43,642 nucleotides of DNA from an uncultured bacterium (GCA_937998345.1 CALLDH010000114.1:1-43642); one strand, 5' to 3'. Positions 10,123-25,813 are shown, counted from the stretch's first letter. Numbers and translations: made by a program. Notes: a model not told the origin generated them from the sequence alone.

Positions 10123-11076
10123 TCAACCGAGCACTGTGAGTTTCTTCTTCCCATAGCGATCCATCATGGGAACCTCGCCCGCATTTGCCTGCTCGGCGAG
10201 CTCGCCCTTGAGGAAAACCTCCGCCGCGCGGTAGCTCGACCGAACGAGCGGCCCTGACGCAACGAAGCGAAAACCCATCTCGATGCCCGCCTGCTCGTAG
10301 TCCGCGAACTCAGCGGGCTCTACGTAGCGATCGACGGCAGCGTGGCGCTTGGTGGGCCGTAGGTACTGACCGATCGTCAGCACGTCGACCTCGGCGTCCC
10401 GCAGGAGCTGCATCGCGTCGAGCACCTCGTGGCGCTCTTCGCCGAGACCGACCATCAGCGACGACTTGGTGATGGAAGAGCCGAGTTCCTTGGCGGCCAC
10501 CAAGACGCCAACCGAACGGTCCCAGGAACAGCGTGCATCGCGAATCGAACGCTGCAAGCGCGGCACGACCTCGACATTGTGCGCGAAGACGTCGGGGCGC
10601 CCTTCTCGGACGACCGTTCGAACGTCATCGTGTTGCCCCCGAAAGTCGCCAACCAGCGTCTCGACGCGAAGCGCGGGGCTGTGGTGCTGGATGCGTCGAA
10701 CCGTCTTCGCGACATGGGCAGCGCCGCCGTCGCCCAGGTCGTCTCGATCGACCATGGTCAGAACGACGTACGCGAGCCCCATCTCAGCAAGCGACAGGGC
10801 TGTGTTCTCGGGCTCGTCGTGATCGAGCACGCCGCCCGGCTTCCCGGTGCGGACCGAGCAAAATCGGCAGCCCCGGGTACAGGTTTCTCCGAGGATCATC
10901 ACCGTCGCCGTGCCCTTGCCCCAGCATTCGAAGATGTTGGGACAGCGAGCCTCTTCACACACCGTGTGCAGGCCGCGGCCCCGGAATCGGGCCTTCACAT
11001 CCTGAAATTCATCGTGCTCCGACCCTGCGGGGAGCCGCACACGAAGCCAGTCAGGTTTGCGAGCCGGTAAGGTCAT
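10123..11076 (-). CDS. lipA: lipoyl synthase
   Basis: CEEARCPNIFEC auxiliary cluster motif and radical-SAM CTRGCRFCSV. The ATG at 11074-11076 (MTLPARKPDWLRV) is preceded by GGAG; the ORF-track start at 11133 is a TTG. Confidence 0.93.
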   Translation of the reverse strand: MTLPARKPDWLRVRLPAGSEHDEFQDVKARFRGRGLHTVCEEARCPNIFECWGKGTATVMILGETCTRGCRFCSVRTGKPGGVLDHDEPENTALSLAEMGLAYVVLTMVDRDDLGDGGAAHVAKTVRRIQHHSPALRVETLVGDFRGQHDDVRTVVREGRPDVFAHNVEVVPRLQRSIRDARCSWDRSVGVLVAAKELGSSITKSSLMVGLGEERHEVLDAMQLLRDAEVDVLTIGQYLRPTKRHAAVDRYVEPAEFADYEQAGIEMGFRFVASGPLVRSSYRAAEVFLKGELAEQANAGEVPMMDRYGKKKLTVLG

Positions 11077-11175
11077 CCGTTGCTCCGGTGAGTCCCAAGC
11101 CAAGCTCTTAGGGGGCGGCACTCCCCCTGTCAATCACGTCTAACACTACGAATTGTGACGGTTTCCTCCACTTCG

Positions 11176-11187: not shown

Positions 11188-11296
11188 AAATCCAGGCCAA
11201 TACGGCGCAATATTTTCGCAAAAGCCACTTTACCTGGCGCATGCGTGCCCCATAATGGGTCATCGCAGCGGCTCATTTCCCGTGTAGGAGCACTCG

Positions 11297-11914
11297 ATGG
11301 ATGACGAAAGACGACCCAGGCGCGCTGGCCCCGTTGAACGGCCAGGCGCCTTTGGTGGCAAGCGAGACATCAACCGGCGCAAGCGCGTCCAGGATTTGAT
11401 CGATGCAGGGCTTTCGCTCTTTCTCGAGAGAGGGATCGAGGCGGTCACGATCGACGAAGTCGCTCGTGAAGCTGGGATGGCGAAAGGCAACTTCTACCGC
11501 TATTTCCGCGACAAAGCAGATCTCGTAGAGGCGGTCATCGAACCGGTAGCCAGTACAACCCGGGAAGCGGTTCAGGCATGCGACGCCCGACTGCGCGAAG
11601 CGGACGGTCGTGACGACGCAGTCGCCGCATACGGAGAGCTGGGCAATAGGCTCATCGGCGCCCTCGCCATGCACCCCGACGCGATGTGCCTCTATCTGCA
11701 GGAGCGCCGCGCCCCGGCGACCACGGCCCGCCAGGCGATTTCGGACCTGGCGACCGACCTGGATGATCGTGCCATGGCGCTGAGTCAGGTCGCGGCGGAT
11801 CGTCAGCTCGTGGCGATCTCCGACCCGCGAGTGAGCGCGATCGCCGTTCTCGGCGCCGTGGAGGCACTTGCGCTGGCCTCGGTGCGCAACCAAGTGCAAA
11901 TGGATCCCATCTAA
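11297..11914 (+). CDS. TetR/AcrR family transcriptional regulator
   Basis: N-terminal HTH VTIDEVAREAGMAKGNFYRYFRDKADLVEAVI, followed by a helical C-terminal ligand domain. Confidence 0.85.
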   Translation: MDDERRPRRAGPVERPGAFGGKRDINRRKRVQDLIDAGLSLFLERGIEAVTIDEVAREAGMAKGNFYRYFRDKADLVEAVIEPVASTTREAVQACDARLREADGRDDAVAAYGELGNRLIGALAMHPDAMCLYLQERRAPATTARQAISDLATDLDDRAMALSQVAADRQLVAISDPRVSAIAVLGAVEALALASVRNQVQMDPI

Positions 11915-12052
11915 ACCACCAAGAGCCTCATCTCCATCGTGCTGGAAGGGCTCCAGAAATAGCCTCCTGATCGACCAGCCGAATGGGGTCCTAAACACCT
12001 GTCCAGCGCGAAACTACCGCTCCGGCGGCTTCTTCTTCACAATTAGGCGGAT

Positions 12053-13411
12053 ATGGCGGGGAAGCTGATGGTGACCGCGGTGTCGTTCGTCTGGTTGGTT
12101 TGGTTGCTCTTGGCGACACTACCGGGCGGCGCTCGGGCGGCGAGCGGGTCCGCCCAAAGCGGCAGCGCGGGCGAGCTCGGTACCGTCGTGTTGCTCGTCG
12201 TCGTGATCGGCGTCGCGTACGTCCTCGCGCACAACGTGGTGGAACGACTGCAGCGCCGCTTCCTCGTCGTGAGCGGGGCGGAGTATCTATTGCTAGGGTT
12301 TCTGCTCGGCCCGGCGTTCCCTGCGATTCACGCGCTCGACAATGTCACTGGCCTCCTGCCGATCATCGCGCTCGCTGCCGGATGGGTCGGACTGTTGCGT
12401 GGTACCGACTTTGATTTCGCCAGTCTACAGAAGCTCGACCCCGCGACCTGGCGGGTCGTGTTCCTGCATCACTTTCTCCCGGGTGTCGGGGTCGGCGTCG
12501 GCTCGTACTACTTCTTCACCCAGACCGGCTGGGTCCTCACCTCTCCACGGGAGGCCGCGCTGAGCGCCTCAGCGCTCGCCTGCTTCGCGGCGGCCGATTC
12601 GGCCGAGCCGTTCGACCTCTTGGCAAGGCGCTATGAAGTGAGTGGCCGCCTCGCGCCGCTGTTGCGCAACGGAACGCGACTCGGCGACATCGGCGTCATC
12701 CTCGCATTCGGCCTGATCTTCTGTGTGTTCCACGAGAACGCCCCCGAAGCGCAGGACTACTCGCCGGCGCTTTGGGCCTGGGTCACGGTCTTGCTCGGTG
12801 GCGCGCTCGGGTTCTTGTTCTCCCTCTTCCTAGCGGGTGACGAGTCGGATAACTCCCGTTTCCTCGCACTGGTCGGCATCATCGCCTTCGCATCGGGCGG
12901 GGCGTATTTCCTAGAGCTCTCACCGCTCGCGGTAAACCTTTCGATGGGATTCGTGCTGGTGAACTTTGCACGAGGTGGCCAGCTCCTGCACACGACACTC
13001 GAGTCGACGGAACGCCCGATGGCTATCGTCCTGCTCATCTTCGCCGGCGCGATGTGGGAGCGCACCGAGCTCGTGCCGACCTTGCTCGCATTGGGCGGAT
13101 TTCTGGTTCTTCGCACTGGGGCCAAGTGGCTCGCGAGTGTCATCGCTGGCTGGGGCACCAGTCTTCGCAAGGACTTGTTCCGCGGGTTGTTGGCACACGG
13201 CGACGTCACGCTCGCGATGGCAGTCTCCTTCCGACTCGTCTACGACGGGGAAGCGGCGAAGATCGCGTACTCGGTCGTTCTGGGCTCCGTGATTTTGAAC
13301 GACCTGATGGCGCCCCGATTGCTGAGAGGTTTGCTCGTCGACGAGGGAGAGATCCAGCGCGAGCTCAAGGGGTCCGATTCCGAAACATCGGCCGAGGTAA
13401 CTATCAGATGA
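12053..13411 (+). CDS. CPA2-like cation/proton antiporter membrane protein (no RCK domain)
   Basis: 452 aa and polytopic. LVVSGAEYLLLGFLLGP...LLPIIALAAGWVGLLRGTDFD resembles the Na+/H+ exchanger family TM1-3 signature. Its stop overlaps the trkA start (ATGA at 13408-13411). Confidence 0.65.
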   Translation: MAGKLMVTAVSFVWLVWLLLATLPGGARAASGSAQSGSAGELGTVVLLVVVIGVAYVLAHNVVERLQRRFLVVSGAEYLLLGFLLGPAFPAIHALDNVTGLLPIIALAAGWVGLLRGTDFDFASLQKLDPATWRVVFLHHFLPGVGVGVGSYYFFTQTGWVLTSPREAALSASALACFAAADSAEPFDLLARRYEVSGRLAPLLRNGTRLGDIGVILAFGLIFCVFHENAPEAQDYSPALWAWVTVLLGGALGFLFSLFLAGDESDNSRFLALVGIIAFASGGAYFLELSPLAVNLSMGFVLVNFARGGQLLHTTLESTERPMAIVLLIFAGAMWERTELVPTLLALGGFLVLRTGAKWLASVIAGWGTSLRKDLFRGLLAHGDVTLAMAVSFRLVYDGEAAKIAYSVVLGSVILNDLMAPRLLRGLLVDEGEIQRELKGSDSETSAEVTIR

Positions 13412-14748
13412 ACATCGTCGTCATAGGTTTGGGCGAAGTCGGGCGCCACTTGTTGAGCGTCCTGGCCAAAGAGGGACACGACATCGTCGCCGTCGACTCG
13501 AGCTCGAAGGCGGTGCAGTACGCCGAGGAGCACTACGACGTCGCATCGATCGTCGGATACGGCGCGAGCGAAACACTGCTGAAGGTCGCGGGCGTGGGGC
13601 GCGCGGACTTGGTGGTCGCCGTCACGGACCACGATGAGATGAATCTGATCGCGACCCTCGCTGCCAAGCAGCTGGGGGCGAAACACGTGGTGGCTCGCGT
13701 ACAGGGCACGGCCTGGTCCGAGTGGACCGAGGGCATTCGCTACGGGCTGCTCGGGGTCGACGTCGTGATCAACCCCCGCGTGCTCGTCGCGCAGGAGCTC
13801 AGCCGCATCGCCCGATCTTACGGCGCATCGGACGTCGTCGACCTAGCGCAGGATCGGGTAGAGCTCGTGCAGATCGACCTCGACGAATCGCGGGCCCTCA
13901 ACAAGCCTCTGTCCGCGGTCGAGTTACCCCCGCACACCCTGGTGAGCGCGGTCGTCCGAGACGGAGAGCTGTTCGTTCCCGGTGGCGCAGACGTCTTGGT
14001 CAAGGGTGACCGGATCTACCTCATCGGCCGCCCCGAGGGTGTTCTCGCGGCGGAGCGGCTCTTCAGCAAGGAACGCGAGGCACGCCGGGTCTGTATCGTC
14101 GGCGGTGGCGTCGTTGGCAAAGCTCTCGCGCGTGACCTACTGCAGCTGGGGGCGACCGTCATGATGATCGAAAGCGACCTCACGACAGCCGAGGAGGTCA
14201 GTGCCGAGTTTCAGGGAATCGAAGTCGTCCACGGGGACGGCACCGATGGCGCCCTTCTCGAAGAGGAAGAGGTGGGAACGTACGACCTCTTTGCCGCAGT
14301 CACGAGACAGGACGAGATCAACCTGATGGCGGCGCTGCTCGCACAGCGCGCGGGCTGCAAGCGAACTGCAACGATCGTACAGCGCGCCGATTACACGTCG
14401 ATTTATCGCCAGCTCGGCATCGACATCGTTCTCTCTCCGCGCACCGTGGCATCAGACCAAATCCTACGCTTCTCCAGAGGTGGGGGCCTGCACAGCCTGA
14501 CGGTGCTCGAAGACGGTCAGGCGGAGGTCGTCGAGCTCACCGCGAGCCCGAAGTGCCGCGCCGTCAACAAGCCTCTGCACCGGATGAACTTGCCGCGCGG
14601 CTCCCTCCTTGCGGCGATCGTGCACGGCGACGACGTGATCATTCCGCACGGCAAGGACGTCGTGCACCCGGGCGACCGGGTCATCCTAATGACCACCAAG
14701 GAAGCGCGGGCGACCGTCGAACGGCTCTTTCGACCGAGGGGTGAGTGA
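13408..14748 (+). CDS. trkA: Trk-system K+ uptake protein TrkA (tandem RCK/KTN domains)
   Basis: Two Rossmann motifs, VVIGLGEVGRHL and IVGGGVVGKAL, each followed by a TrkA_C-like segment. The ORF 13054..14748 begins inside the previous gene; the ATG at 13408 is the sensible start. Confidence 0.9.
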   Translation: MNIVVIGLGEVGRHLLSVLAKEGHDIVAVDSSSKAVQYAEEHYDVASIVGYGASETLLKVAGVGRADLVVAVTDHDEMNLIATLAAKQLGAKHVVARVQGTAWSEWTEGIRYGLLGVDVVINPRVLVAQELSRIARSYGASDVVDLAQDRVELVQIDLDESRALNKPLSAVELPPHTLVSAVVRDGELFVPGGADVLVKGDRIYLIGRPEGVLAAERLFSKEREARRVCIVGGGVVGKALARDLLQLGATVMMIESDLTTAEEVSAEFQGIEVVHGDGTDGALLEEEEVGTYDLFAAVTRQDEINLMAALLAQRAGCKRTATIVQRADYTSIYRQLGIDIVLSPRTVASDQILRFSRGGGLHSLTVLEDGQAEVVELTASPKCRAVNKPLHRMNLPRGSLLAAIVHGDDVIIPHGKDVVHPGDRVILMTTKEARATVERLFRPRGE

Positions 14749-16235
14749 GCACGCAATCGAGAGACTTTCGTGGCGTGATTCGACCCGTGGGCGCCGTCGT
14801 CCTCGGGATCGGCGTGATGATCGCGCTCTGCGCTGGCGTCGGGATGCTCTGGGATCAGTTCGCGCCCGACCCGACTCGGCCCCAGGGTGGCGCCGCCGAA
14901 CTGGCCTTGTCCGCCATCATCGTTTCGATCTTAGGCTTGGGGGCATTCCTCTACGGCAATCGCTTCGTGTCAGAGCGCATCTCCCGCCGCGAGGCCCTGC
15001 TGGCCGTGAGCCTAATTTGGATTGCCGCGGGCGCCTGCGGAGCGGTGCCGTTCATGCTCGGGGCCGGCATGTCTGCCGCTGACGCATTCTTCGAATCGGT
15101 CAGCGGTCTCACAACCACCGGCGCGACGGTCATCGACGACATCGAGGGGCGCTTGTCGCGGCCGCTGTTGCTTTGGCGCTCGCTGATTCAGTGGCTTGGC
15201 GGGATGGGCATCGTCGTGCTGTTCGTCGCGGTCTTTCCGAACTTGGGTGCCGGAGGAAAGCATTTGTTCCGCGGCGAGGTGCCCGGAACGACCGCCGAAG
15301 GCTTGCGACCTCGAATTGCCGAGACCTCGTTCGCCCTATGGAGGCTGTACGGCGCCTTCACCATCCTCGAGATCGCGCTCCTCAAGGTCCTAGGCCTCGA
15401 TCTATTTGACGCCGTGTGCCACGCGTTCACGACCATGTCGACGGGCGGTTTCTCGACGCTCGACAGCTCGGTGGGCGGTTTCGACAGTGCCCCAGTCGAG
15501 TACGTGATCGCTTGCTTCATGCTGATCGGCAGCGTGAACTACGGCCTCTACTACGGCCTCCTGCGGTCGGGCAGCTGGAAGACTCTGGTTCGAAACGTCG
15601 AGTTCCGATCGTACGTCGGCATCGTGGTCGTCGCAGTGGTCGTGCTGACGGTCCTGAACCTCAGCGTGCACGACGACATCCTGACCTCGTTCCGCTACTC
15701 CTTCTTCATGGTTGCGACGACGATCTCATCGACCGGATATGGCACGGACGACTACAGCGTCTATAGCTCGACGGCGCTAACCATCGTGATCCTCCTGATG
15801 TTCGTCGGCGGTTGCTCCGGATCGACTGCAGGCGGCATCAAGATCGAGAGAGCCGTGCTGATGGGTAAGCAAGCCATCGCACAAATTCAGAAGAGCTTCC
15901 GGCCCGCAACGGTGCAGCTCGTACGCATGGGCAAGGTCGCGATCAATAACCAAGTGCTCGCCGACGTTGGGTCGTTCTTCTTGATCTACATGGGGTGCAT
16001 CGGCGCCGGCCTACTCTTCGTGACGCTGGTCGAGGGCGTTCCGGTGCCCACGGCCTTCGGAACGATGCTGACGTGCTTGTCCAACATGGGCCCTGCACCC
16101 TTCCACGTGGGGCCGGACAACTTTTCTGCGTATTCCGCGGGCAGCAAGTTGTTCTTCTCGATGGCCATGCTGCTTGGACGACTGGAGTTCTTCACGCTCT
16201 TCGCGCTGGTTCTACCTGGGTTCTGGAGACGCTGA
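14745..16235 (+). CDS. trkH: Trk-system K+ uptake protein TrkH
   Basis: Pore-loop-like motifs TTTGATV, MSTGGFST, SSTGYGT and the hallmark GGCSGSTAGGIK. The GTG start overlaps the trkA stop (GTGA). Confidence 0.9.
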   Translation: MSTQSRDFRGVIRPVGAVVLGIGVMIALCAGVGMLWDQFAPDPTRPQGGAAELALSAIIVSILGLGAFLYGNRFVSERISRREALLAVSLIWIAAGACGAVPFMLGAGMSAADAFFESVSGLTTTGATVIDDIEGRLSRPLLLWRSLIQWLGGMGIVVLFVAVFPNLGAGGKHLFRGEVPGTTAEGLRPRIAETSFALWRLYGAFTILEIALLKVLGLDLFDAVCHAFTTMSTGGFSTLDSSVGGFDSAPVEYVIACFMLIGSVNYGLYYGLLRSGSWKTLVRNVEFRSYVGIVVVAVVVLTVLNLSVHDDILTSFRYSFFMVATTISSTGYGTDDYSVYSSTALTIVILLMFVGGCSGSTAGGIKIERAVLMGKQAIAQIQKSFRPATVQLVRMGKVAINNQVLADVGSFFLIYMGCIGAGLLFVTLVEGVPVPTAFGTMLTCLSNMGPAPFHVGPDNFSAYSAGSKLFFSMAMLLGRLEFFTLFALVLPGFWRR

Positions 16236-19200
16236 TGGTCGGCTCGTACAGCATGCCTCCTCCCGGCGAGGAGACCCACGCACGGCGACAAATCACCGTC
16301 ATCATCCTGCTCCTGTTCGGCATGGTGGCGCTCTATCAGTTCGAGCAGTTCGCCCAAGATGGTTTCGACCCGAGCGGAATGCTGGCCTTCGGCTTCGTGG
16401 TTTTGGCCAGCTACACGATCGGCGGACTCGTAGCCCAGATTCGTCTGCCCCACATCACGGGCTACCTGATCGCCGGCCTCGTGTTTGGCCCCTCGCTGGC
16501 AGTTGCTCTCACCGGCCTCGATCTCCCGGCGCCTTTTGACAGAGGCATTCTCAACGCAGAAGTGATCGAGCAGCTCAGCCTGTTCGACACGCTCGCGGTT
16601 GCTCTGATCGCACTGACTGCGGGTGGCGAGCTCAAGCTCCAAGCGCTCAAGAAGGGGATGCGCGCGATCAGCTCGATCCTGGCGGCGCAGATCGTTTCCG
16701 TCGGGGTACTGGTCACCGCGTTCTTCTGGCTAATCTCTGGCGCGGTCCCGTATGTCGGCTTCCCGGGCGTCGAGGGCCTGCCTATGGTCGCGGCGTTGGC
16801 GGTCGGCGCGATGGTCGCCTCGGTGTCGCTAGCCACCTCTCCCGCTGCGACGATCGCCGTCATCATGGAGTCGCGGGCCACAGGCCCGATGACGAGAAAC
16901 GTGCTGTCGGTCGTCGTCCTCAAGGACGTCGTCGTCCTCGTGCTCTTCGCGATCGCGCAGGTCGTGGTTGCACAGCAAATCGGCGTGAGTGCGATGGAGG
17001 GCGGCATCGCCGCCTACCTGATGAAGCACATCGTCTTTTCGATCATCTTCGGCGCGGTGGTCGTGGGCGGCCTGATGGCGCTCTACATTCGGTACGTCAA
17101 TCAGGAGCTCCTGATCTTCGTCGTCGGCGTCGTGTACCTGGTCGCTTTCATCGCTGCAGAGCTCGGTTGGGACCCTGTGCTGGTCTTTCTCGCCGCCGGC
17201 TTCGGCGTTACCAATTTCTCCAAGACTGGCCACCGGCTGATCGAAACTGTCGAACGGCTGTCACTGCCCGTCTACGTGGTCTTTTTTACGCTCGCCGGCG
17301 CAAAGCTCCATCTCGAACAGCTCCAACAAGTCGCGTTGTTCGCGATCGCCCTGGTAGGCGTTCGAGCGTTCGCGATCTACTCCGGAACCAAGTTGGGCTC
17401 CCGGTTGGGCAAAGCCGACGAAGCGACGCAGGCCTTCGGATGGACGGGTTTCGTTTCCCAGGCGGGTGTCTCGATCCTCCTCGCCGCGATGGTCGGGAAC
17501 ACGTTCGGAGAGCTCGGACAGTCGCTCGAAACCTTGATCATCGGCGGTGTCGCAATCAACGAGCTGATTGGGCCGGTGCTGTTCAAGATGGGTCTTACGC
17601 TCTCGGGCGAGGCAAGCACGGGTCGTGCATCGCTCACTCCGGCGAGGCACTTGTCGGTGAAACCTCCCTCGATGAGACCCGAGGGCGGGAAGGGCGAAGC
17701 GAAACAGCTCGAGCCCTGGCCTGAGCACGTCGGGAAGAAGGATCTTTGGGGTGCTCCATTTCATACGAAGAGTGCCGAGCTCAACAATCGCATGCAGGAG
17801 CTCGCTGGTGACCTTCAGAGCATCGTGCGCGAGGTATCGACCGGGCCGCTTCGTGAGTTCCAGCTCGACGCAGGCAAGTACTTGCGCGACTTGCGGCGCG
17901 AGTTCCTGCGTCATCATCGGCGACTGACGGTCCAGGCCCGCGCAGAGGACGGCGGGGAACGCGACGAGCTGGTGACCATGCTTCGCTCTGCGCAATCCGA
18001 TTTGGCGGCCCACTGGCGCGGGATCGTCCTCGGGCGATCGGTGACGCTTGCCAAACTGAACTGGACTCCCGAGATCATGCTGGACAACGTCGATGGCTTG
18101 GTCGACGAGCTGCCCGAGGTCGTCACGGCTCCCTACGAGGACCAATCCTACGATCGCAACGAAGACGACTCGCTCTGGAAACGGTTCCGGCGCCAAGGCC
18201 TTCGTCTACGCCGAGGCTGGCGCAAGGCCTTCGGGCAAAGCCCTCCGACGCGCGATGTTCGGTTGCGTGCTCTTGGACGCTACCATCTCTCGTATGACGC
18301 GCCCGCGCGGCTCGAGGGCTTGGCGGCCCTTTTCGTCGAAGCTGACCGGCACCTCGCGGCTCGCACGCGAAGCCTCTTCGACGGGGTGATCGTGGGCTAC
18401 GACGACATCGTGGACATCGCCGCCGAGTCCGACGCTGACCTCGAAGCCCAACTGGTCCGCCTGCGTCACGACGTCGAGGAGGAACTCGCGCTCGCGCTCG
18501 ACGAGACCGTCCGAATCACCGGCGACGGCACTCATCGCGCCGCCAGCGCGCTCGGCACTGGCTTCGTCAAGATGAAGGAAGACCTCCCGACTTTCGGGAC
18601 CCTCGATTTGCCCACGAGCGAGCGCCGGACGAGCCGCCGCTTCGCGAACCGGATGCGCGCGATGGAGACGCTCACCAAGGACGTATCGAACCTTCGAAAG
18701 GCAAGCTCGGCGGAGTATTCCTCACTTGCAATGGAGCTCGAGCTGCTCGGCCTCGAAGCGCGCATCAAGGACAACGTGGCCGAGTATGTTTCGCGACTGA
18801 CCAGTACTGTGAAGCGCCGCGCGACCTCCCAGGTCGAGCGTGTGAGCGACACGCTTCAGAAGGCACTGACTGAGCTGAACGCCGAGCTCGAAAGCAACTA
18901 CTCGGGCGATGAGCTGGCGGCGGCGCTGCGACGGGCTACGGAGGCGACCAGCAAAGCCACGGGCGAGGCCGCACGTGTCACTATGGAGCTGTACCAAGAC
19001 CTGAGCGACGATACGAAGATCGCGCCTCTGCTCGACACCTTGGTGGACGCGTGCCGCGGCCTCACCCCACGCTACAGGGTGACGGTTGGCCAGCGTCAGA
19101 CCGGCGAATGGCGCCTGCCGACGTCCCTGCCGGAGGTGGAGGTGCCCTTCAGAGAAGTGGTGCTGACTTACATCGACAGCCGGGTCGCGCCGAAGCTGCT

Positions 19201-20749
19201 TGCGAGCCGGCGTGAGCTCGCCGAGCGCGTACAGCCACTCGCAAACCTGCTGCAAGAGCTCGAGCGTGTCGTTGCCTTCAACGTGGAACTGGCAACCGCG
19301 GAGCTCGAGGTCGTTCACGACGAGCCGATCCCCGAAGAGATGCACACATTGCTCCGCGACATGGTCTACGGCCAGCTCGAGAGGAACTACAACTCGCTCG
19401 AGGAGATCCGGGCTGACGCCAAGGGCTGGCCCGCGATCATCGAGGCGGAGATGCGTGATGCAGCACTTGGTACGCTCGAAACGCTTCGCGGCGAGCTCGC
19501 CGAGGGTTCGTTCAGCAAGTCGCGCCTCGAAGCCATGCGCCGCGCGGCTAGTGGTCTTCGGATGATCGCGAAAGCCGAGCGGCAACCTCGCATGCAACGC
19601 CTCAAGGCGCAGCTCCGCGGCGGTCTTCGCGCGTTGTTCGGTGAGGAGCGGCTCGAACGTTGGAGCGAGCGGCTCGGGCTGACCGGAGCCTTGCCTAGCG
19701 AGGAGCTCACCGCCGGCACGTTCACCGCTCCTGAGGTGGCGGCCGATCTACCTCTGGTCTACCGCCGGCTGTTTGCCGCTGACACGATGGAGGCTGGAGA
19801 CGTGCTCACTGGCCGGGAGCAAGAGATCCGCCGCGCCGAATCCGTGCTTGCGAGCGAGGTCAAAGGCAGGCTTCGATCTGTCGCGCTGGTTGGCGTCGAC
19901 GGCGTGGGCAAAGCAGCGGTATCGAGCGCGATCGTGCGCAGCCGTCGTTGGAAGAACGTGAAGCGAGTCGTGTTCACGGCTCCGGTTAGCATCGAAGACG
20001 TCGACGTGATCTTCCAGGACGCGCCCGAGGGTCAGCTCGTGGTAGTTGACGGTCTCCACTGGATGCTCTCGATGGCGCCGGGGGGCTTCGACCCCCTGCG
20101 CAGGTTCGTCAAAGGCATCATCGAAGAAGGCGGCAGGCGCCGTTGGTTGGCGCACGGCGCCGTCCTGTTCTGGAACTTCGCCTCGACCGTCGCGCCACTG
20201 CGTGACGCATTCCCCGAAACGATTCGACTCGAGCCGTTGAGCGAGCCAGAGCTGCAAGCGGCCGTCATCGCCAGACACCGCCTGAGCGGATTCGAGCATT
20301 CGTTCGACCGTGGAGACGGATCGCCCATCGAAGGCTTGTTTGCGCGAAGCGCTACCCGCATTCGCCGCCCATACGACCAGTACTTCCACGAGCTTCACGA
20401 TGCGACCGGAGGGCTCGTGCGTGACGCTCTTCGTCTATGGCTGGCTTCAATCCGGGGAATCCACGATGACATCGTGCACGTGGGACCGATCCCGGCCTCG
20501 CCGTATGCGCGCGTCAGGCGCCTGCCCGATGACATTCTCGTCAACCTGTACCAGATCGCGCGCGAAGGTTGGATCGACGCAGCCGGCCAGGCGAGGCTGT
20601 TCAGGCTCGACGTCAACACCGCCCAAGCACAGCTGAGCCGTCTCGCCCACCTCGGTTTGCTCGACGAACGCGCCGGCGCATTCGTGATCGCGGTCCATCT
20701 TCGAGGCGTGTTGGGCCGCGTGTTCGATGAGCGAGGATGGGTCCTGTGA
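16235..20749 (+). CDS. 1,504-aa multidomain protein. N-terminal CPA2-like antiporter membrane domain (aa ~18-455), ~750-aa helical/coiled-coil region, C-terminal AAA_16/Arch-ATPase-like P-loop NTPase, and a wHTH-like tail
   Basis: The ATG at 16235 overlaps the trkH stop (TGATG). Membrane domain: RLPHITGYLIAGLVFGPSL..., about 11-13 hydrophobic helices, nt 16286-17599. Then a long R/E/L/A-rich helical stretch. Next comes LTGREQEIRRAESVL...VALVGVDGVGKAAV (Walker A, nt 19892-19915), Walker B-like QLVVVDGLHW (nt 20036-20050) and IRLEPLSEPELQAAV. The terminal ~80 aa (LVNLYQIAREGWID...LSRLAHLGLLDE) look like a winged helix. One uninterrupted frame. Confidence 0.75.
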   Translation: MVGSYSMPPPGEETHARRQITVIILLLFGMVALYQFEQFAQDGFDPSGMLAFGFVVLASYTIGGLVAQIRLPHITGYLIAGLVFGPSLAVALTGLDLPAPFDRGILNAEVIEQLSLFDTLAVALIALTAGGELKLQALKKGMRAISSILAAQIVSVGVLVTAFFWLISGAVPYVGFPGVEGLPMVAALAVGAMVASVSLATSPAATIAVIMESRATGPMTRNVLSVVVLKDVVVLVLFAIAQVVVAQQIGVSAMEGGIAAYLMKHIVFSIIFGAVVVGGLMALYIRYVNQELLIFVVGVVYLVAFIAAELGWDPVLVFLAAGFGVTNFSKTGHRLIETVERLSLPVYVVFFTLAGAKLHLEQLQQVALFAIALVGVRAFAIYSGTKLGSRLGKADEATQAFGWTGFVSQAGVSILLAAMVGNTFGELGQSLETLIIGGVAINELIGPVLFKMGLTLSGEASTGRASLTPARHLSVKPPSMRPEGGKGEAKQLEPWPEHVGKKDLWGAPFHTKSAELNNRMQELAGDLQSIVREVSTGPLREFQLDAGKYLRDLRREFLRHHRRLTVQARAEDGGERDELVTMLRSAQSDLAAHWRGIVLGRSVTLAKLNWTPEIMLDNVDGLVDELPEVVTAPYEDQSYDRNEDDSLWKRFRRQGLRLRRGWRKAFGQSPPTRDVRLRALGRYHLSYDAPARLEGLAALFVEADRHLAARTRSLFDGVIVGYDDIVDIAAESDADLEAQLVRLRHDVEEELALALDETVRITGDGTHRAASALGTGFVKMKEDLPTFGTLDLPTSERRTSRRFANRMRAMETLTKDVSNLRKASSAEYSSLAMELELLGLEARIKDNVAEYVSRLTSTVKRRATSQVERVSDTLQKALTELNAELESNYSGDELAAALRRATEATSKATGEAARVTMELYQDLSDDTKIAPLLDTLVDACRGLTPRYRVTVGQRQTGEWRLPTSLPEVEVPFREVVLTYIDSRVAPKLLASRRELAERVQPLANLLQELERVVAFNVELATAELEVVHDEPIPEEMHTLLRDMVYGQLERNYNSLEEIRADAKGWPAIIEAEMRDAALGTLETLRGELAEGSFSKSRLEAMRRAASGLRMIAKAERQPRMQRLKAQLRGGLRALFGEERLERWSERLGLTGALPSEELTAGTFTAPEVAADLPLVYRRLFAADTMEAGDVLTGREQEIRRAESVLASEVKGRLRSVALVGVDGVGKAAVSSAIVRSRRWKNVKRVVFTAPVSIEDVDVIFQDAPEGQLVVVDGLHWMLSMAPGGFDPLRRFVKGIIEEGGRRRWLAHGAVLFWNFASTVAPLRDAFPETIRLEPLSEPELQAAVIARHRLSGFEHSFDRGDGSPIEGLFARSATRIRRPYDQYFHELHDATGGLVRDALRLWLASIRGIHDDIVHVGPIPASPYARVRRLPDDILVNLYQIAREGWIDAAGQARLFRLDVNTAQAQLSRLAHLGLLDERAGAFVIAVHLRGVLGRVFDERGWVL

Positions 20750-21795
20750 TGTCTACCCTTCGGCGCCACTGCGTGTTGATTCTCTTGGTCGCGTCGATTG
20801 CGGCGCCGGCCGGAGCGCAGCTCCTCGACTCACCCAGGTGGCAATCTAGTCAACCAGAGGAGCAGGCCGAGCCACCACCGCCCACCGCCGAACCGCCACC
20901 CGAGCCGAAGCCTGCCCCGGCGCCGGCGCCCACCGAACCAGAGGCGCAGGCCGATGAGTCTTCCTTGGAGCCGCCGCGCTGGATCGCCAAGGCGCCTCCG
21001 GCACCCGTCCAGGCCGAGGAGCCTCCAACGACGGAAGACCGCAATCAGCTCCTTGTCCTCTTCCTGACACTCCTCGCCGTGGGCGTCGTCCTGTTCGGCG
21101 CCGAACGTGCCCGCAGCTGGATCACGACCAACATTCCATTGCGGCGTGCTCTTGGCGCGCTGGTCTTCGTTCTGCGCCTGGTCGGCTTCGGGCTTCTGCT
21201 GGCGATCATCTTCGAAATGGTCCCTCGGGGTCAGGACTGGATTCTCTGGACACTGCTGGTCATGGCGTTGGTCATCGGCTGGTCAGTGCGTGATCTCTTC
21301 GCCGACCTCGTGGCCGGGGGAATCTTGGCCGCCGAGCGGCGCGTGAAGAAGGGCATGTGGGTTTCGGGAGACGGTTTCCAAGGCACCGTCGAAGGACGGT
21401 CGCTTCGGGCGACCTGGCTGCGCGATGGACAAGGGCATCGATTGACGGTGCCCAACCGAGCGATGGTCGGCGCGCCGATGGTGTATGACGCGGGCTCGGA
21501 CGCCGAGCACGAGGTGGTCGTGCGCCTCGAGGGCTATGATGACGCCGGCAAGGTGCGAATGGCGCTGACCGACGCGATCCTCAGCTCGCCGTGGGTTCTT
21601 GCCGGTGCCACTCCGGTAGTGCTGCGCGACCCCGCCGATCCGGTCGTCTGGCGCGTTCGAACCAAGCTCCTCGAGCCTCGCTTTTCGGTGCACTTCGAGG
21701 GGGAGCTCCTCGAGCGCGTCGAGGACCTGCTGCGCCACGAACCAGCCCCCGAAGATCGCGAAACCGTCCCCAGCGAATCCCCTCCCGCAGGCTAG
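20749..21795 (+). CDS. MscS-family mechanosensitive channel-like protein with signal peptide and Pro-rich N-terminal extension
   Basis: Signal-like MSTLRRHCVLILLVASIAAPAGAQ, then a PEP/PAP-rich ~90 aa stretch, then 3 TM helices. This is followed by LVAGGILAAERRVKKGMWVSGDGFQGTVEGRSLRATWLRDGQGHRLTVPNRAMV, an MscS TM3/beta-domain pattern. The ATG at 20749 overlaps the upstream stop (TGATG); an alternative ATG is at 20737. Confidence 0.7.
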   Translation: MSTLRRHCVLILLVASIAAPAGAQLLDSPRWQSSQPEEQAEPPPPTAEPPPEPKPAPAPAPTEPEAQADESSLEPPRWIAKAPPAPVQAEEPPTTEDRNQLLVLFLTLLAVGVVLFGAERARSWITTNIPLRRALGALVFVLRLVGFGLLLAIIFEMVPRGQDWILWTLLVMALVIGWSVRDLFADLVAGGILAAERRVKKGMWVSGDGFQGTVEGRSLRATWLRDGQGHRLTVPNRAMVGAPMVYDAGSDAEHEVVVRLEGYDDAGKVRMALTDAILSSPWVLAGATPVVLRDPADPVVWRVRTKLLEPRFSVHFEGELLERVEDLLRHEPAPEDRETVPSESPPAG

Positions 21796-22832
21796 GCGAG
21801 CCAGTCGCGAAGCTCGCCCGTCACAACACGCGGCGCCTGTTGGAGCTCTTCTACCGTCTTGGCGCCACAGAGCAGCATGACGGATCGGAGCTCGCGCTCC
21901 ACGCGCAACAGAAACGAGCGCGCTCCGTCGACACCCCCTTCGAGGAACGCTTGATAGACGTTCCGCGCGATGCCGGCGCAGCTCGCGCCGAGGGCAATCG
22001 CGCGGGCCACGTCCATGCCAGTGCGGATGCCGCCCGTCGCAATCGTCGTCATCCCGGCGCCGACGCAATATTGAACCGACGCGGCGGTAGGAATACCCCA
22101 GTCCCATAGGGCCTCGCCGAGCGCCCGCCCGTCACCCTCCGCGCGCAATGTTTCGACACCGACCCACGAAGTGCCGCCTGCACCAGAGGTGTCGGCGTGC
22201 CGGATGCCAATCGCGCGAAGCCTGGCGGCGACCTCTCGACTGATCCCGCTCCCCGTCTCTTTGGCAATGACGGGTACGTCGAGCTCTGACCAGAGTCGTT
22301 GGAAGGTTTGGAAGCCACCGCCGAAGTCCCGATCGCCTTCGGGCTGAACCAGCTCCATGGCCGGGTTCATGTGCACGCAGAGAGCGTCAGCCCCGACATC
22401 GGCCAGCATTTGAGCGATTGCCTCCGTGGAGAGATCACGCGCCTGCACCACACCAACGTTACCGAAGAGAAGGGCATCCGGCGCGTGCGCGCGCACCTGG
22501 TACGTCCAACTCGTCTCAGGGCGCTTCTGCATCGCGCGCTGACTTCCCAATCCAAATGCGTAACCGAGCTCGTTCGCGATCGAGGCTAGCGCTTGGTTGA
22601 TTTCTCCGGCGCGTTCATGCCCGCCGGTCATCGCGGCGATCAGCAACGGGGCGCGGAGCTCTTTGCCGAGCAGGCGGACGCGAGTGTCAATCGAATCGAA
22701 GTCGGCCTCGGGGAGCGCCTGATGTACGAGGCGCACGCATTCGAGGAGGGTAGTGCGGTGCCGAAACGCAACCTCGTCGGTCGCGCACAGGTCCAGATGA
22801 TCGGCCTTTCTCTGCTCAATATCTGCGGTCAT
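21792..22832 (-). CDS. fni: isopentenyl-diphosphate delta-isomerase, type 2 (FMN-dependent)
   Basis: Motifs QRKADHLDL, LLIAAMTGG, VIAKETGSGIS, GAGGTSW, ATGGIRTG. Confidence 0.9.
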   Translation of the reverse strand: MTADIEQRKADHLDLCATDEVAFRHRTTLLECVRLVHQALPEADFDSIDTRVRLLGKELRAPLLIAAMTGGHERAGEINQALASIANELGYAFGLGSQRAMQKRPETSWTYQVRAHAPDALLFGNVGVVQARDLSTEAIAQMLADVGADALCVHMNPAMELVQPEGDRDFGGGFQTFQRLWSELDVPVIAKETGSGISREVAARLRAIGIRHADTSGAGGTSWVGVETLRAEGDGRALGEALWDWGIPTAASVQYCVGAGMTTIATGGIRTGMDVARAIALGASCAGIARNVYQAFLEGGVDGARSFLLRVERELRSVMLLCGAKTVEELQQAPRVVTGELRDWLA

Positions 22833-22908
22833 CGCCTTGCTTGCTCAGCAGCGTCCTGCCGTGTACGTAGCTCGGAATAAGGACACTGACACCGTGGCGC
22901 AAGGGCAA

Positions 22909-23931
22909 ATGGATATCGAGTCTTGGATGGGGAGTATCCGTGAGCGCGTTGACGCCATCCTGGAACGGTTTTTCGAGTCGAAGTGCGTGGAGGCGAGGCG
23001 GCTCTCGCCGCAAGCGATAGAGCTGGTCACCGAGGTCCGCGACCTCACGATGCGTGGGGGTAAGCGGCTTCGGCCCATCGTAACCGCGGCCGCGTATCGG
23101 GCGGCCAGCGGCGTCCACGACCTCAGCACGACGTTCGAGGTTGGCGCGGCGTTGGAGCTTCTGCAGACGTACTTGCTGATTCACGACGACTGGATGGACG
23201 AGGACAAGGAGCGCCGCGGTGGGCCGGCGGTGCACTACGCCTTCCAGAGGAAGCACCGTCACGACCATCTGGGCGCCAGCCTCGGGATCCTCGCCGGAGA
23301 TCTGGCTTCGACCTTCGCTTGGGAGCTTCTACTCGAGGGCCAGTTTCCGGAGAGCCGCCGAGACGAGGGCTTGGCACTCTTCGTCAGGATCCAAAAGGAA
23401 GTGTTTGCTGGGCAGCAGCTCGACCTCATGACGGACGGGGCCGTCGAGCGCATGCATGACTTGAAGACCGGGAGCTACACGACGCGTGGACCGGCCGAGC
23501 TCGGTGGAGTCCTCGCCGACGCGGACGAAGCGGGCATGGAGTCCCTCCGGAGTTGGGCCGCACCACTCGGGGTCGCCTTTCAGCTGCGAGACGATCTCCT
23601 TGGAACCTTCGGGAGCGCGCAACAAACCGGAAAGCCAGGCGACGACCTTCGGCACGGAAAGCACAACGCCGTCGTTGCGGCCTTTCGCAGGCTCGGCCCG
23701 AGCAAAGCGGAGCAATTGGTGTTCACAAGCGTCTGGGGGCGCACGGAGGCCACTGACGACGAGGTTCGGGCCGCTACCGAAGTCCTTTCTTCTGCCAAGG
23801 ACGAGGTCGGGTCGCGGCTCAGCTTCTTGGCCGATGAGGCACGGAGCGCACTCGCCGCAAGCCCGTTCGACGACGACGCCAAACAGTTGCTCGAAGAGGT
23901 GACGCGGCGGCTCACGGACCGAGGGACCTGA
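22909..23931 (+). CDS. short-chain trans-prenyl diphosphate synthase (FPP/GGPP synthase family)
   Basis: First Asp-rich motif LLIHDDWMDED, second FQLRDDLLG, and GKPGDDLRHGK. The ATG at 22909 (MDIESW) is preferred over 22837, which abuts the divergent fni start. Confidence 0.85.
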   Translation: MDIESWMGSIRERVDAILERFFESKCVEARRLSPQAIELVTEVRDLTMRGGKRLRPIVTAAAYRAASGVHDLSTTFEVGAALELLQTYLLIHDDWMDEDKERRGGPAVHYAFQRKHRHDHLGASLGILAGDLASTFAWELLLEGQFPESRRDEGLALFVRIQKEVFAGQQLDLMTDGAVERMHDLKTGSYTTRGPAELGGVLADADEAGMESLRSWAAPLGVAFQLRDDLLGTFGSAQQTGKPGDDLRHGKHNAVVAAFRRLGPSKAEQLVFTSVWGRTEATDDEVRAATEVLSSAKDEVGSRLSFLADEARSALAASPFDDDAKQLLEEVTRRLTDRGT

Positions 23932-24827
23932 TGGGCTTCGGGCGAGGCAAGGTCATCTTGCTCGGTGAACATGCCGTCGTTCACGGTTGCCCGGCAATCG
24001 CAGTCGGGATCGAACGGGGCGTCACTGCCGAAGCAGTGACGGCCGAGCGTGACCTCCTGCGCCTCTCGCCCTGGGACTTGGCGCTCGGGCCCAATTCGAA
24101 CGGGTACGAGCCCCTCGAACGCGCGTTCGCGGCTGCGCTCGCAATGTATCCCTCACGTCCTCCACTAGAGGTCAGCGCCAAGGTGGACCTCCCGGCTGGC
24201 GCGGGCCTTGGCTGCTCCGCAGCAATCGGCGTAGCCGTGCTGGACGCCATCGACGAGGTCCTCGGCGTCGACCGGTCGCGAAAGGCGCTCGCGGCGGCCG
24301 CGCTCGTTTGGGAGAAGATCTTTCACGGCAATCCGTCTGGAATCGACAACACGATGTCAGCCATCGGAGGCGTTGCGCTCTATCGCAAGGGCGATGAACT
24401 ACGACCGCTGCACTCGAACAAGCCATTGCACTTGGTGATCGGTTACAGTGGCGAGCCCTCGAGCACGAAAGAGATGGTTGCGTTGGTTGACAGGCAGCTC
24501 GAGAACGACCGCGAACGAGTCACCAAGGCCTTCGCGGGCATCGAGGTGCTGGTGCGCAATGCCAAGCTCGCCATCGAAGCCGGTGACCACGTCGCGCTCG
24601 GGCAGTTGCTCGACCTTAATCACACGCTCCTCAGCTCGCTGATGCTGTGCACTACCAAGCTGGATGATATGTGCCAGGCCGCGCGACGAGCCGGAGCGTT
24701 GGGCGCCAAGATGACCGGCGCCGGCGGTGGAGGCTGCATGTTCGCGCTGGCGCCCAAGCGTGATGAAGCGCTGCGACTGCGGGACGTGCTCGGGGAGGGT
24801 TCGTTCGTCGCCGAGGTGACGGCATGA
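23931..24827 (+). CDS. mvk: mevalonate kinase
   Basis: GKVILLGEHAVVHG and GHMP motif PAGAGLGCSAA. The start overlaps the upstream stop (TGATG). Confidence 0.85.
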   Translation: MGFGRGKVILLGEHAVVHGCPAIAVGIERGVTAEAVTAERDLLRLSPWDLALGPNSNGYEPLERAFAAALAMYPSRPPLEVSAKVDLPAGAGLGCSAAIGVAVLDAIDEVLGVDRSRKALAAAALVWEKIFHGNPSGIDNTMSAIGGVALYRKGDELRPLHSNKPLHLVIGYSGEPSSTKEMVALVDRQLENDRERVTKAFAGIEVLVRNAKLAIEAGDHVALGQLLDLNHTLLSSLMLCTTKLDDMCQAARRAGALGAKMTGAGGGGCMFALAPKRDEALRLRDVLGEGSFVAEVTA

Positions 24828-25813
24828 CTGATCCGCCGACCGAAGCGAGCGCGCGGGCGTGTGCCAACATCGCGCTCGCCAAGTACTGGGGCAAGGCGGA
24901 TGTGAAGCGGAACGTCCCTGCCGTCCCGAGTATTTCGCTGACCCTCGACCAGCTCGTGACCGAAACGCGAGTCCGGTTTGATCCATCGCTCGGGTCCGAC
25001 GTGGTGAGGCTCGACGGTCGGCGGGCGACCGTGGCAGAAGCCGAGCGGGTCATCACGATGCTCGATCGGGTCCGTCGGGAGTCAGGATTGCGGCTGAAGG
25101 CCCAGGTCAACAGCCACAACCACTTCCCGACTGCGGCGGGGCTCGCGTCGAGCGCGTCCGGGTTCGCCGCGCTCGCTGCGTCGGCTTCGGCCGCCGCAGG
25201 GCTTCGCTTCAACGCACGCCGGCTCAGCGCGCTCGCCCGGACATCGAGCGCTTCGGCCGCCCGCTCGATCTATGGGGGTTTCGTGGAGCTCCCTGCCGGC
25301 AACCGCGGCGATGCGGACCTGGCCGCTCGACCGATCGCGCCACCCGAGCATTGGAATCTGCGCCTTGTCGTCGCACTGACCGAGCCTGGCAAGAAGAAAG
25401 TCGGTTCGACGGAAGGGATGGAGCGCTCGCGCAAGACGTCGCCCTACTATGAGGCCTGGCTGGACCAGGCGCCCAAATGGTCGCGGAAGATCAAGCGCGC
25501 GGTGAAGGAGCGCGACCTCGACACCTTGGGCAATGCCATGGAGCGGAGCACGCTGGCATTTCACTGCTGCGCGATCATGTCCGATCCGCCAATCCTCTAT
25601 TGGGCGCCCGCGACGCTGGCCGCTCTCGCCACGGTGCGCGGGCTGCGTGAACGAGGGGTCTCGGCCTGGGCGACGATGGATGCCGGACCACACGTCAAGA
25701 CGCTGTGCGAGGTAGGCGACGCAAGCCGCGTTCGGCAAGCGCTCGATCGAACGCCGGGGGTCACCCGAACTTGGGTGGCTAAGCCCGGACCCGATGTCGA
25801 GGTGCATCGGTGA
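24824..25813 (+). CDS. mvaD: diphosphomevalonate decarboxylase
   Basis: ANIALAKYWGK, AAGLASSASGFAALA, MDAGPHV. ATGA overlap with mvk. Confidence 0.9.
   Translation: MTDPPTEASARACANIALAKYWGKADVKRNVPAVPSISLTLDQLVTETRVRFDPSLGSDVVRLDGRRATVAEAERVITMLDRVRRESGLRLKAQVNSHNHFPTAAGLASSASGFAALAASASAAAGLRFNARRLSALARTSSASAARSIYGGFVELPAGNRGDADLAARPIAPPEHWNLRLVVALTEPGKKKVGSTEGMERSRKTSPYYEAWLDQAPKWSRKIKRAVKERDLDTLGNAMERSTLAFHCCAIMSDPPILYWAPATLAALATVRGLRERGVSAWATMDAGPHVKTLCEVGDASRVRQALDRTPGVTRTWVAKPGPDVEVHR

Follow-up and report, generated by a model that had tools for sequence, protein, structure and literature searches.

What is encoded by a single 4.5-kb reading frame that begins as a cation/proton antiporter, ends in an ATPase-like fold and lies among genes for potassium uptake and a MscS-like channel? 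The frame (16235..20749, plus strand; 1504 residues) is found in a 43,642-nucleotide stretch of DNA from an uncultured bacterium (GCA_937998345.1 CALLDH010000114.1:1-43642), which as a whole is called the window here, and its predicted product consists of a cation:proton antiporter (CPA) domain, a linker, a helical domain, a degenerate AAA+ fold and a winged helix. Among regulated cation/proton antiporters, KefC carries RCK domains, NHE has calcineurin-like partners and SLC9C1 has voltage and cyclic-nucleotide domains; to our knowledge, none has an AAA+/STAND-like fold or a 660-residue helical domain of this kind. We use the name X for the cytoplasmic module of about 1000 residues that is formed by the 660-residue helical domain, the AAA+ fold and the winged helix. 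We propose, with a rough probability of 0.45 for the general picture, that X serves a K+/osmotic-homeostasis unit as its cytosolic regulatory scaffold and is tethered here to the CPA domain.

Translation of the open reading frame (ORF) gave 1504 codons without an internal stop, and its ATG shares a TGATG overlap with the trkH stop, in agreement with an earlier reading made from the sequence alone (the sequence-only reading), which had described one unbroken 4.5-kb frame coupled to trkH. The motifs quoted in that reading, RLPHITGYLIAGLVFGPSL, GREQEI, GVDGVGKA (K1226), LVVVD (D1272) and IRLEPLSEPEL, were all located at the residues it gave. A longer form starting at GTG 15995 was rejected; it would overlap trkH by 240 nt, and the homologues, called at about 1504 residues, speak against it. 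Among 5.8 billion proteins searched, 369 homologues of the giant protein were found, and of the 120 listed, those uncut by contig ends were about 1500 residues long (coverage, 97-100%; identity down to 48%). These full-length homologues came from many independent assemblies, including closed chromosomes of metagenome-assembled genomes and contigs of >1 Mb. Column conservation among divergent members was even along the protein (0.5-0.76), with the gap-rich linker (residues 451-500) as the exception. The frame is not a frameshift artefact, because the full-length ORF is kept across hundreds of independent Myxococcota assemblies to 48% identity; a frameshift or stop splitting it, which the sequence-only reading had named as fatal to its view, was not borne out. 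That the frame might have arisen through misassembly or a frameshift, or be a recent pseudogene formed when an antiporter gene fused with a separate ATPase gene, would agree with the soluble stand-alone X proteins found at other loci (see below), but the length and coverage of the homologues and the uniform conservation over the junction, short linker excepted, speak against it. We give this explanation next to no weight and regard it, from the homologue survey, conservation profile and locus scan, as already refuted.

The locus scan covered one genome per species, used two short peptide patterns as the query and yielded 80 loci, almost all of them under the labels Myxococcota, Polyangiales, Sandaracinaceae or "Deltaproteobacteria"; because of the two patterns it returned only Myxococcota-type relatives and gives no bound on taxonomic range. 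The family appears to occur mainly in uncultured Polyangiales/Sandaracinaceae (uncultured Myxococcota). Three loci carry other labels: L035 (CAXMND010000044.1, "uncultured Coxiellaceae bacterium"), with operon genes 81-93% identical to those of the window, and L088 and L089 (JACKEW010000011.1 and JACKEX010000043.1, both "Alphaproteobacteria bacterium"), with a myxobacterial-type operon; these probably reflect mis-binning or mislabelling rather than spread outside Myxococcota. In databases, the giant protein is labelled "cation:proton antiporter" or "KefB" (the latter given by JGI to several homologues), and the Pfam family PF00999 is precomputed for nearly all homologues. A literature search, confined to the library available, found no paper joining Na_H_Exchanger with AAA_16 and none on this operon. 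The opinion that this architecture is not a characterised family holds, since none was found in domain, structure or literature searches.

The cytoplasmic module also occurs by itself. An exhaustive HMMER search with residues 461-1504 gave 1168 cluster representatives at E ≤1e-3 (168 at E ≤1e-30), and about 20 stand-alone X proteins of 950-1060 residues were found that begin with Met, lack hydrophobic segments and align from just ahead of a conserved WG motif, which comes after the linker of the giant protein, through the C-terminus. The gene order trkA, trkH, X, MscS-like, with genes abutting or overlapping, was found in four of five readable stand-alone contexts, and X followed by a MscS-like remnant in the fifth; none of the five had a CPA domain or a gene like orf12053 (the first gene of the window's operon, described below) within 8-10 kb. 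Pfam-less proteins of ~447-480 residues in stand-alone loci were considered as orf12053-like and found to be unrelated. In locus L082 (10001-14082), a stand-alone X has no trkAH upstream and is followed by a MscS-like stretch (13684-14082, plus strand) detected by tblastn only, over which the gene caller had put an ORF on the minus strand; the locus may hold an operon copy in decay.

The fused form was surveyed by tblastn of the window proteins against the 80 loci. The MscS-like gene lies directly downstream in 61/62 evaluable loci (the exception, L040, is an assembly gap), and trkA plus trkH lie upstream in 58/60 (L008 is a gap; L074 truly lacks them), so that the co-occurrence of trkAH and MscS to which the sequence-only reading had pointed is confirmed. 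The orf12053 gene was found upstream in 57/60 (exceptions L008, L074 and L077). This order holds down to 35-40% identity; the outer flanking genes (lipoyl synthase, FMN-dependent dehydrogenase and polyprenyl synthase) are found mainly in relatives of more than ~66% identity, L069 being the one exception. Distant loci L088 and L089 carry orf12053-like, trkA, trkH, CPA-X and MscS genes, and distant locus L090 carries orf12053-like, CPA-X and MscS genes without trk genes. Since fused, stand-alone and distant loci agree, the tightest link is that between X and MscS, with trkAH as the usual upstream partner. The fusion, in which the sequence-only reading had seen a membrane module hard-wired to a switch, is not the basic unit; X is instead an autonomous family tied to a MscS-like gene and trkAH, and the antiporter domain is, from this comparison of loci, a lineage-specific addition to it.

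In the window, the order orf12053, trkA, trkH, CPA-X, MscS-like occupies 12053-21795 on the plus strand. All four junctions overlap: ATGA between orf12053 and trkA, 4 nt between trkA and trkH, TGATG between trkH and CPA-X, and 13 nt or TGATG between CPA-X and the MscS-like gene, depending on which of two in-frame ATG codons (20737 or 20749) starts the latter. This suggests one translationally coupled operon. The trkA product (13408..14748; 446 residues) has two TrkA_N and two TrkA_C RCK domains (Pfam) and matches the NCBIfam TrkA equivalog NF007039 at 431.9 bits (cut-off, 293). The trkH-family gene (14745..16235; 496 residues), for a K+ uptake membrane subunit, matches Pfam TrkH (E 5e-51) and the NCBIfam TrkH models below their cut-offs. 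The MscS-like channel gene (20737..21795; 352 residues from ATG 20737) matches Pfam MS_channel_2nd (E 7e-10), and residues 114-295 of its product (pore helix and beta domain) match MscK (PDB 7uw5, E 6e-9) and MscS (2vv5, E 7e-6). The RCK domains of the operon are confined to the separate trkA gene. A simple promoter and terminator scan gave nothing above shuffled expectation, with no sigma-70-like promoter and no convincing terminator; the gene after the MscS-like gene converges from the minus strand.

What kind of module is X? Its C-terminal part comprises an AAA+/STAND-like P-loop alpha/beta domain with lid (residues ~1190-1410; 19802..20464), containing the Walker A sequence GVDGVGKA (residues 1220-1227; 19892-19915), the Walker B-like LVVVD (residues 1268-1272; 20036-20050) and the lid motif GGLVRDALRLW, and a winged helix (residues ~1411-1504; 20465..20746) with invariant RQGW and HLRG motifs. 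An AlphaFold2 model of residues 1141-1504 (pLDDT 85.9, pTM 0.83) shows a five-stranded alpha/beta core, a helical lid and the winged helix. Foldseek with this model returned 528 PDB matches at E ≤1e-3; the top 50 listed are AAA+ proteins, headed by DNA-bound Aeropyrum Orc1 (2v1u, E 1e-8), and further matches include RuvB, clamp-loader and RFC subunits, ORC2, Hda and Cdc6. The alignments to the top matches, Orc1/Cdc6 and RuvB, span nearly the whole model. A C-terminal profile searched against the PDB gave weak P-loop matches to ClpC1 (E 4e-4), Cdc6 and DnaI and weak winged-helix matches of MarR and EutK type. Pfam AAA_16 matches residues 1191-1235 below its gathering score (17.7 bits versus 32.6); across members it matches the GRE helix and P-loop in 25/25 (17.7-21.7 bits, first 46 model positions only), with weak nSTAND1 matches in 9/25. 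Since the model, Foldseek, PDB profile and AAA_16 matches agree, the earlier assignment of a P-loop AAA+/STAND-like fold with a winged-helix tail was right: P-loop base, lid and winged helix are all present.

The nucleotide motifs are degenerate. GVDGVGKA departs from the Walker A consensus GxxxxGK[ST], and the Walker B consensus hhhhD[DE] is represented by D1272 without a second acid, at a position that varies. In the window's clade (≥48% identity, i.e., at least 48%), the P-loop reads G-x-D-G-V-G-K, with DGVGK invariant and A, G or S as the next residue; GGLVRDALRLW, Arg included, is nearly invariant, and D/N/S/E/G occur at the Walker B Asp position (T too across the wider set). Motifs were counted in 89 aligned representatives of at least 950 residues from the HMMER search. 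The Walker A Lys (K1226) is kept in 33/89 (replaced by R in 18 and Q in 12), the Walker B acid (D or E at position 1272) in 33/89 (replaced by S, T, N or G) and the sensor-2-like Arg (R1396) in 33/89 (replaced by Q, S, A or H); the structural positions G1284 (78/89), G1393 (83/89), G1273 (69/89) and W1276 (63/89) are kept. Among stand-alone forms, the Walker A Lys is present in only 5/20. Because the catalytic residues are each kept in 33/89 while structural glycines persist, selection appears to act on the fold and not on catalysis. The C-terminal module is best described, on these alignments, as a pseudo-AAA+ scaffold, in which nucleotide or phosphate binding may persist within the window's clade.

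These counts bear on the NTP-dependent switch that the sequence-only reading had proposed, and make it doubtful. If the C-terminal module were an active STAND/AAA+ switch driven by nucleoside triphosphate (NTP), an ADP-off/ATP-on state would gate the antiporter; the presence of the AAA+, lid and winged-helix fold, the weak AAA_16 and nSTAND1 matches across members, and the D-G-V-G-K and lid Arg of the window's clade all fit. Against this stand the A, G or S after the Lys in place of a conserved S/T, a Walker B Asp that varies even among close relatives, the loss of Lys, acid and Arg each in most lineages while structural positions stay, and the few stand-alone forms with the Lys, and we consider an active switch unlikely. 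Like STAND NTPases of the AAA_16 type (MalT/AfsR-like; PF13191, nSTAND1), the module gives weak matches to both profiles and has the order nucleotide-binding domain, helical region, winged helix, and a signal-transducing switch fused to an effector would also fit; unlike them, it matches below the gathering score, has no C-terminal repeat sensor, has degenerate nucleotide residues, places the P-loop module at the extreme C-terminus after a new helical domain and has no defence-system match. A role as a STAND effector in anti-phage defence was ruled out by the lack of a PADLOC match, the housekeeping-type conserved operon and a G+C content like that of the flanks.

The structural matches raise a second alternative, that X is an Orc1/Cdc6-like DNA-binding regulator, membrane-tethered in the fused form, that controls transcription of the operon. 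Orc1/Cdc6 and RuvB carry a C-terminal winged helix. The module shares with archaeal Orc1/Cdc6, RuvB and clamp loaders the P-loop base and lid (and, with Orc1/Cdc6 and RuvB, the winged helix), at Foldseek E 1e-8 to 1e-6, together with a G-R-E helix before the P-loop and a G-x-x-R-x-A-L lid motif; it differs in identity (12-18%; TM-scores, 0.35-0.5), in that its Walker A S/T, Walker B acid and sensor-2 Arg are not conserved, and in being joined to a transporter among ion-transport rather than replication or repair genes. The best structural match is to a DNA-bound protein, and the winged helix has weak MarR-like profile matches and a mildly positive net charge (+1 to +8 among the members listed), but few basic residues are found in its recognition helix, every conserved partner is a membrane transport protein of one co-translated operon, and a 660-residue helical domain with a polytopic-membrane tether would be unusual for a transcription factor. 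Winged helices of STAND and AAA+ proteins often make intramolecular contacts only, which also counts against DNA binding. We judge a DNA-binding role quite improbable.

The rest of X is a helical domain (residues 491-1150; 17705..19684), joined to the membrane domain by a linker (residues ~455-495; 17597..17719) that varies in length and is the least conserved and most gap-rich stretch of the protein. The AlphaFold2 model of the helical domain (24-sequence alignment; pLDDT 88.1, pTM 0.77) is made up of long helices, including one of 87 residues, with a few short strands, and the motif LRREFLRHHRRL is near-invariant, stand-alone relatives included. Residues 460-1190 match no Pfam or NCBIfam family; a Pfam scan of 24 members gave no consistent match, only scattered weak ones (FliX in 9 and MnmE_helical in 3) that were judged compositional. 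Nothing was found with the helical-domain profile against the PDB, nothing useful by phmmer of the 1044 cytoplasmic residues against the PDB, and nothing significant by Foldseek of the model against the PDB (best E 0.14; all TM-scores <0.2); long-helix matches to designed bundles, ClyA and LeoA were set aside as non-significant. Internal repeats were not found in the domain. The ~750-residue helical region without a recognisable family noted earlier is thereby upheld, with a confident model of all-helical type and no Pfam or PDB analogue, and we regard the 660 residues, as modelled, as a new domain without a known family or solved analogue.

Does the membrane domain still work as an antiporter? 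Pfam Na_H_Exchanger (PF00999) matches residues 59-450 (16409..17584) at E 3e-22 and 79.4 bits (gathering score, 26.2), covering model positions 3-374 of 375, i.e., nearly the whole model. Hydropathy places ~12-13 hydrophobic segments, all before residue 455 apart from one weak segment at the P-loop strand; together with the Pfam match this supports the polytopic Na+/H+-exchanger-type N-terminus of the sequence-only reading. Its "CPA2" label was not confirmed. The membrane part (460 residues) matched no PDB chain by phmmer even at E up to 10, the family hidden Markov model (HMM) scored below zero against Escherichia coli KefC (E 0.77), and local hhalign against KefC gave a probability of 1.6% (the global mode gave a meaningless alignment); since the domain is too divergent for a significant KefC match, "CPA2" comes from the JGI "KefB" labels alone.

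Residues were mapped onto KefC with a MAFFT add-alignment of 112 sequences, which was colinear but of low identity. Proteins of the CPA superfamily carry a strictly conserved Asp for ion binding, on the helix that follows the first unwound one (KefC D156, NapA D157), and in this low-identity alignment D156 corresponds to D231, invariant in 112/112. KefC Q155 corresponds to K230 (Lys in 107/112, Gln in 1/112), so that the candidate ion site reads K230-D231 (16922-16927) rather than QD (KefC) or DD (NapA, as in electrogenic CPA2). KefC K307 corresponds to R377 (17363-17365; 112/112), L152 to V227 (112/112), S125/S126/T127 to A200 (100/112), T201 (105/112) and S202 (111/112), and E337 to a Ser or Ala at 413 that is never acidic. 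In KefC, D156 is the essential ion-binding residue and Q155 of the "QD" helps to select dehydrated K+, while K307 neutralises helix dipoles and E337 the opposite dipoles; the ion-site motifs described are DD, ND and QD (PMC11150392). The core Asp and basic residue thus seem to be kept, but the K-D site would fall outside the described motifs. As a side observation from the same low-identity alignment, a Lys next to the binding Asp might serve as a tethered cation. Compared with the glutathione-gated K+/H+ exchanger KefC/KefFC of E. coli (PMC11150392), the giant protein has in common a CPA-fold domain of the 13-transmembrane type, the ion-binding Asp, a basic residue on the helix equivalent to transmembrane helix 11 and a large cytosolic regulatory part on the same chain; it differs in having no RCK/KTN domain (no TrkA_N/TrkA_C match), K-D for Q-D, no acid at E337 and, apart from the generic Pfam family, no detectable relationship to KefC, and its cytosolic part of ~1000 residues is made up of helical domain, pseudo-AAA+ fold and winged helix.

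The first operon gene, orf12053 (12053..13411), encodes a 452-residue polytopic membrane protein with no Pfam, NCBIfam or PADLOC match, and its listed homologues are all "hypothetical protein" or unnamed. By BLASTP its C-terminal third is colinear with residues 314-459 of the giant protein (E 9e-7), family-to-family hhalign against the giant's CPA domain gave a probability of 98.4% (E 5e-15, 382 columns), and the giant's CPA HMM matches distant orf12053 orthologues at E 1e-15 to 1e-17. In the hhalign alignment an Asp (G-D) lies opposite K230-D231 and an Arg opposite R377. From these profile comparisons, orf12053 is a full-length, highly divergent CPA-fold paralogue of the giant's N-terminal domain, and orf12053-like genes are confined, at the loci examined, to those in which X is fused to the CPA domain. 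Exchangers of the CPA type function as dimers. In KefC the two subunits are identical (PMC11150392). Given such dimerisation, a heterodimer of orf12053 with the giant's CPA domain would be an attractive possibility.

These findings also bear on a third alternative, in which the CPA domain does not transport but serves as a membrane anchor or ion sensor (a "transceptor") that places X beside the MscS-like channel and TrkH. It would agree with the occurrence, in some lineages, of X without a CPA domain but in an unchanged trkAH-X-MscS setting, with the unusual K-D site and missing acid at the E337 position, and with a divergence too great for a match to KefC or any PDB chain by sequence. The invariance of Asp231 and Arg377 (112/112), a membrane domain as conserved as the rest of the protein and a co-occurring CPA paralogue that also keeps Asp and Arg are better fitted by a working dimeric transporter, and we hold a pure anchor or sensor to be unlikely as well.

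In the scaffold model that we prefer, the giant gene would encode the membrane-tethered form of a previously undescribed regulator, X. Its CPA domain would still bind or translocate a cation and proton, as the retention of the central Asp231 and Arg377 leads us to infer, and would probably pair with the orf12053 paralogue as a dimer. Tethered by the flexible linker, X would stand in place of the RCK domain of KefC as a cytosolic gate or scaffold, and could sense a cytosolic cue (a nucleotide or phosphate at the P-loop Lys kept in this clade, ionic strength, or K+). It would then link cation/H+ exchange with Trk uptake and with release by the MscS-like valve, using contacts between proteins and not ATP hydrolysis. 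Precedent for part of this is offered by the sperm Na+/H+ exchanger SLC9C1, a CPA-fold exchanger on one chain with gating signalling domains, voltage-sensor and cyclic-nucleotide-binding (PMC10620092); it is eukaryotic, its regulatory domains are entirely different, and the comparison covers the exchanger fold only. By analogy only, the arrangement may also recall TrkE/SapD, an accessory P-loop protein tied to TrkAH K+ uptake that is unrelated in fold and size, being an ABC-type ATPase; in E. coli, this accessory ATP-binding protein is needed for TrkH activity.

Several observations weigh against the scaffold model. Locus L074 (4851-10810) carries fused CPA-X and a MscS-like gene without trkAH and without an orf12053-like gene within 4.8 kb upstream, where FHA, peptidase M74 and unknown genes take the place of the usual operon. 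The KefC residue mapping comes from a low-identity MAFFT alignment, and the family HMM has no significant KefC match; the K-D motif and the absence of an acid at the E337 position could mean that the domain performs no canonical transport. The invariant DGVGK of the window's clade may mean that nucleotide binding is still relevant there, and the mildly basic winged helix would be compatible with DNA binding. The NTP-switch and anchor or sensor alternatives overlap in part with the scaffold model. A bolder extension, in which X bridges a heterodimeric CPA exchanger, a heptameric MscS-like valve and TrkAH via the helical domain and a pseudo-AAA+ ring or dimer, so that one cytosolic sensor would gate K+ uptake, K+(Na+)/H+ exchange and emergency solute release, and in which the K-D site would define a CPA subtype with a new mechanism, is in our opinion rather unlikely. 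An L074 ORF (1948-3318) considered as orf12053-like proved to be unrelated.

Outside the operon, a lipoyl synthase gene (10123-11133, minus strand; Radical_SAM and LIAS_N) lies upstream, as does a 241-residue ORF (11273-11998, minus strand) without a Pfam match that is found mainly in close relatives, with weak matches in divergent loci L056 and L067. Downstream, 21792-25813 (probably to ~26742) holds a mevalonate-pathway cluster, with a gene of the FMN-dependent dehydrogenase family, possibly a type-2 isopentenyl diphosphate isomerase, on the minus strand and genes for polyprenyl synthase, GHMP kinase and diphosphomevalonate decarboxylase on the plus strand. Among related loci, the FMN-dependent dehydrogenase and polyprenyl synthase are shared mainly with relatives above ~66% identity.

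The reach of the finding is limited for now to a family seen mainly in uncultured Polyangiales/Sandaracinaceae, with a role inferred from sequence and models. Antiporter labels in databases hide two thirds of the giant protein, and the stand-alone X proteins are labelled "hypothetical protein" or left unnamed. The C-terminal module adds a clear case of an AAA+ fold retained as a non-catalytic scaffold. The whole would represent a regulated exchanger and Trk/MscS osmoregulatory operon with a new regulatory subunit, and more than that should several transport systems turn out to be bridged by X. Specialists would be surprised by the architecture and by the X-MscS-Trk linkage, both of which can be tested directly; the linkage of X to MscS and trkAH, and a CPA fusion that travels with a second CPA gene, give testable ideas on how bacteria coordinate K+ uptake, exchange and mechanosensitive release.

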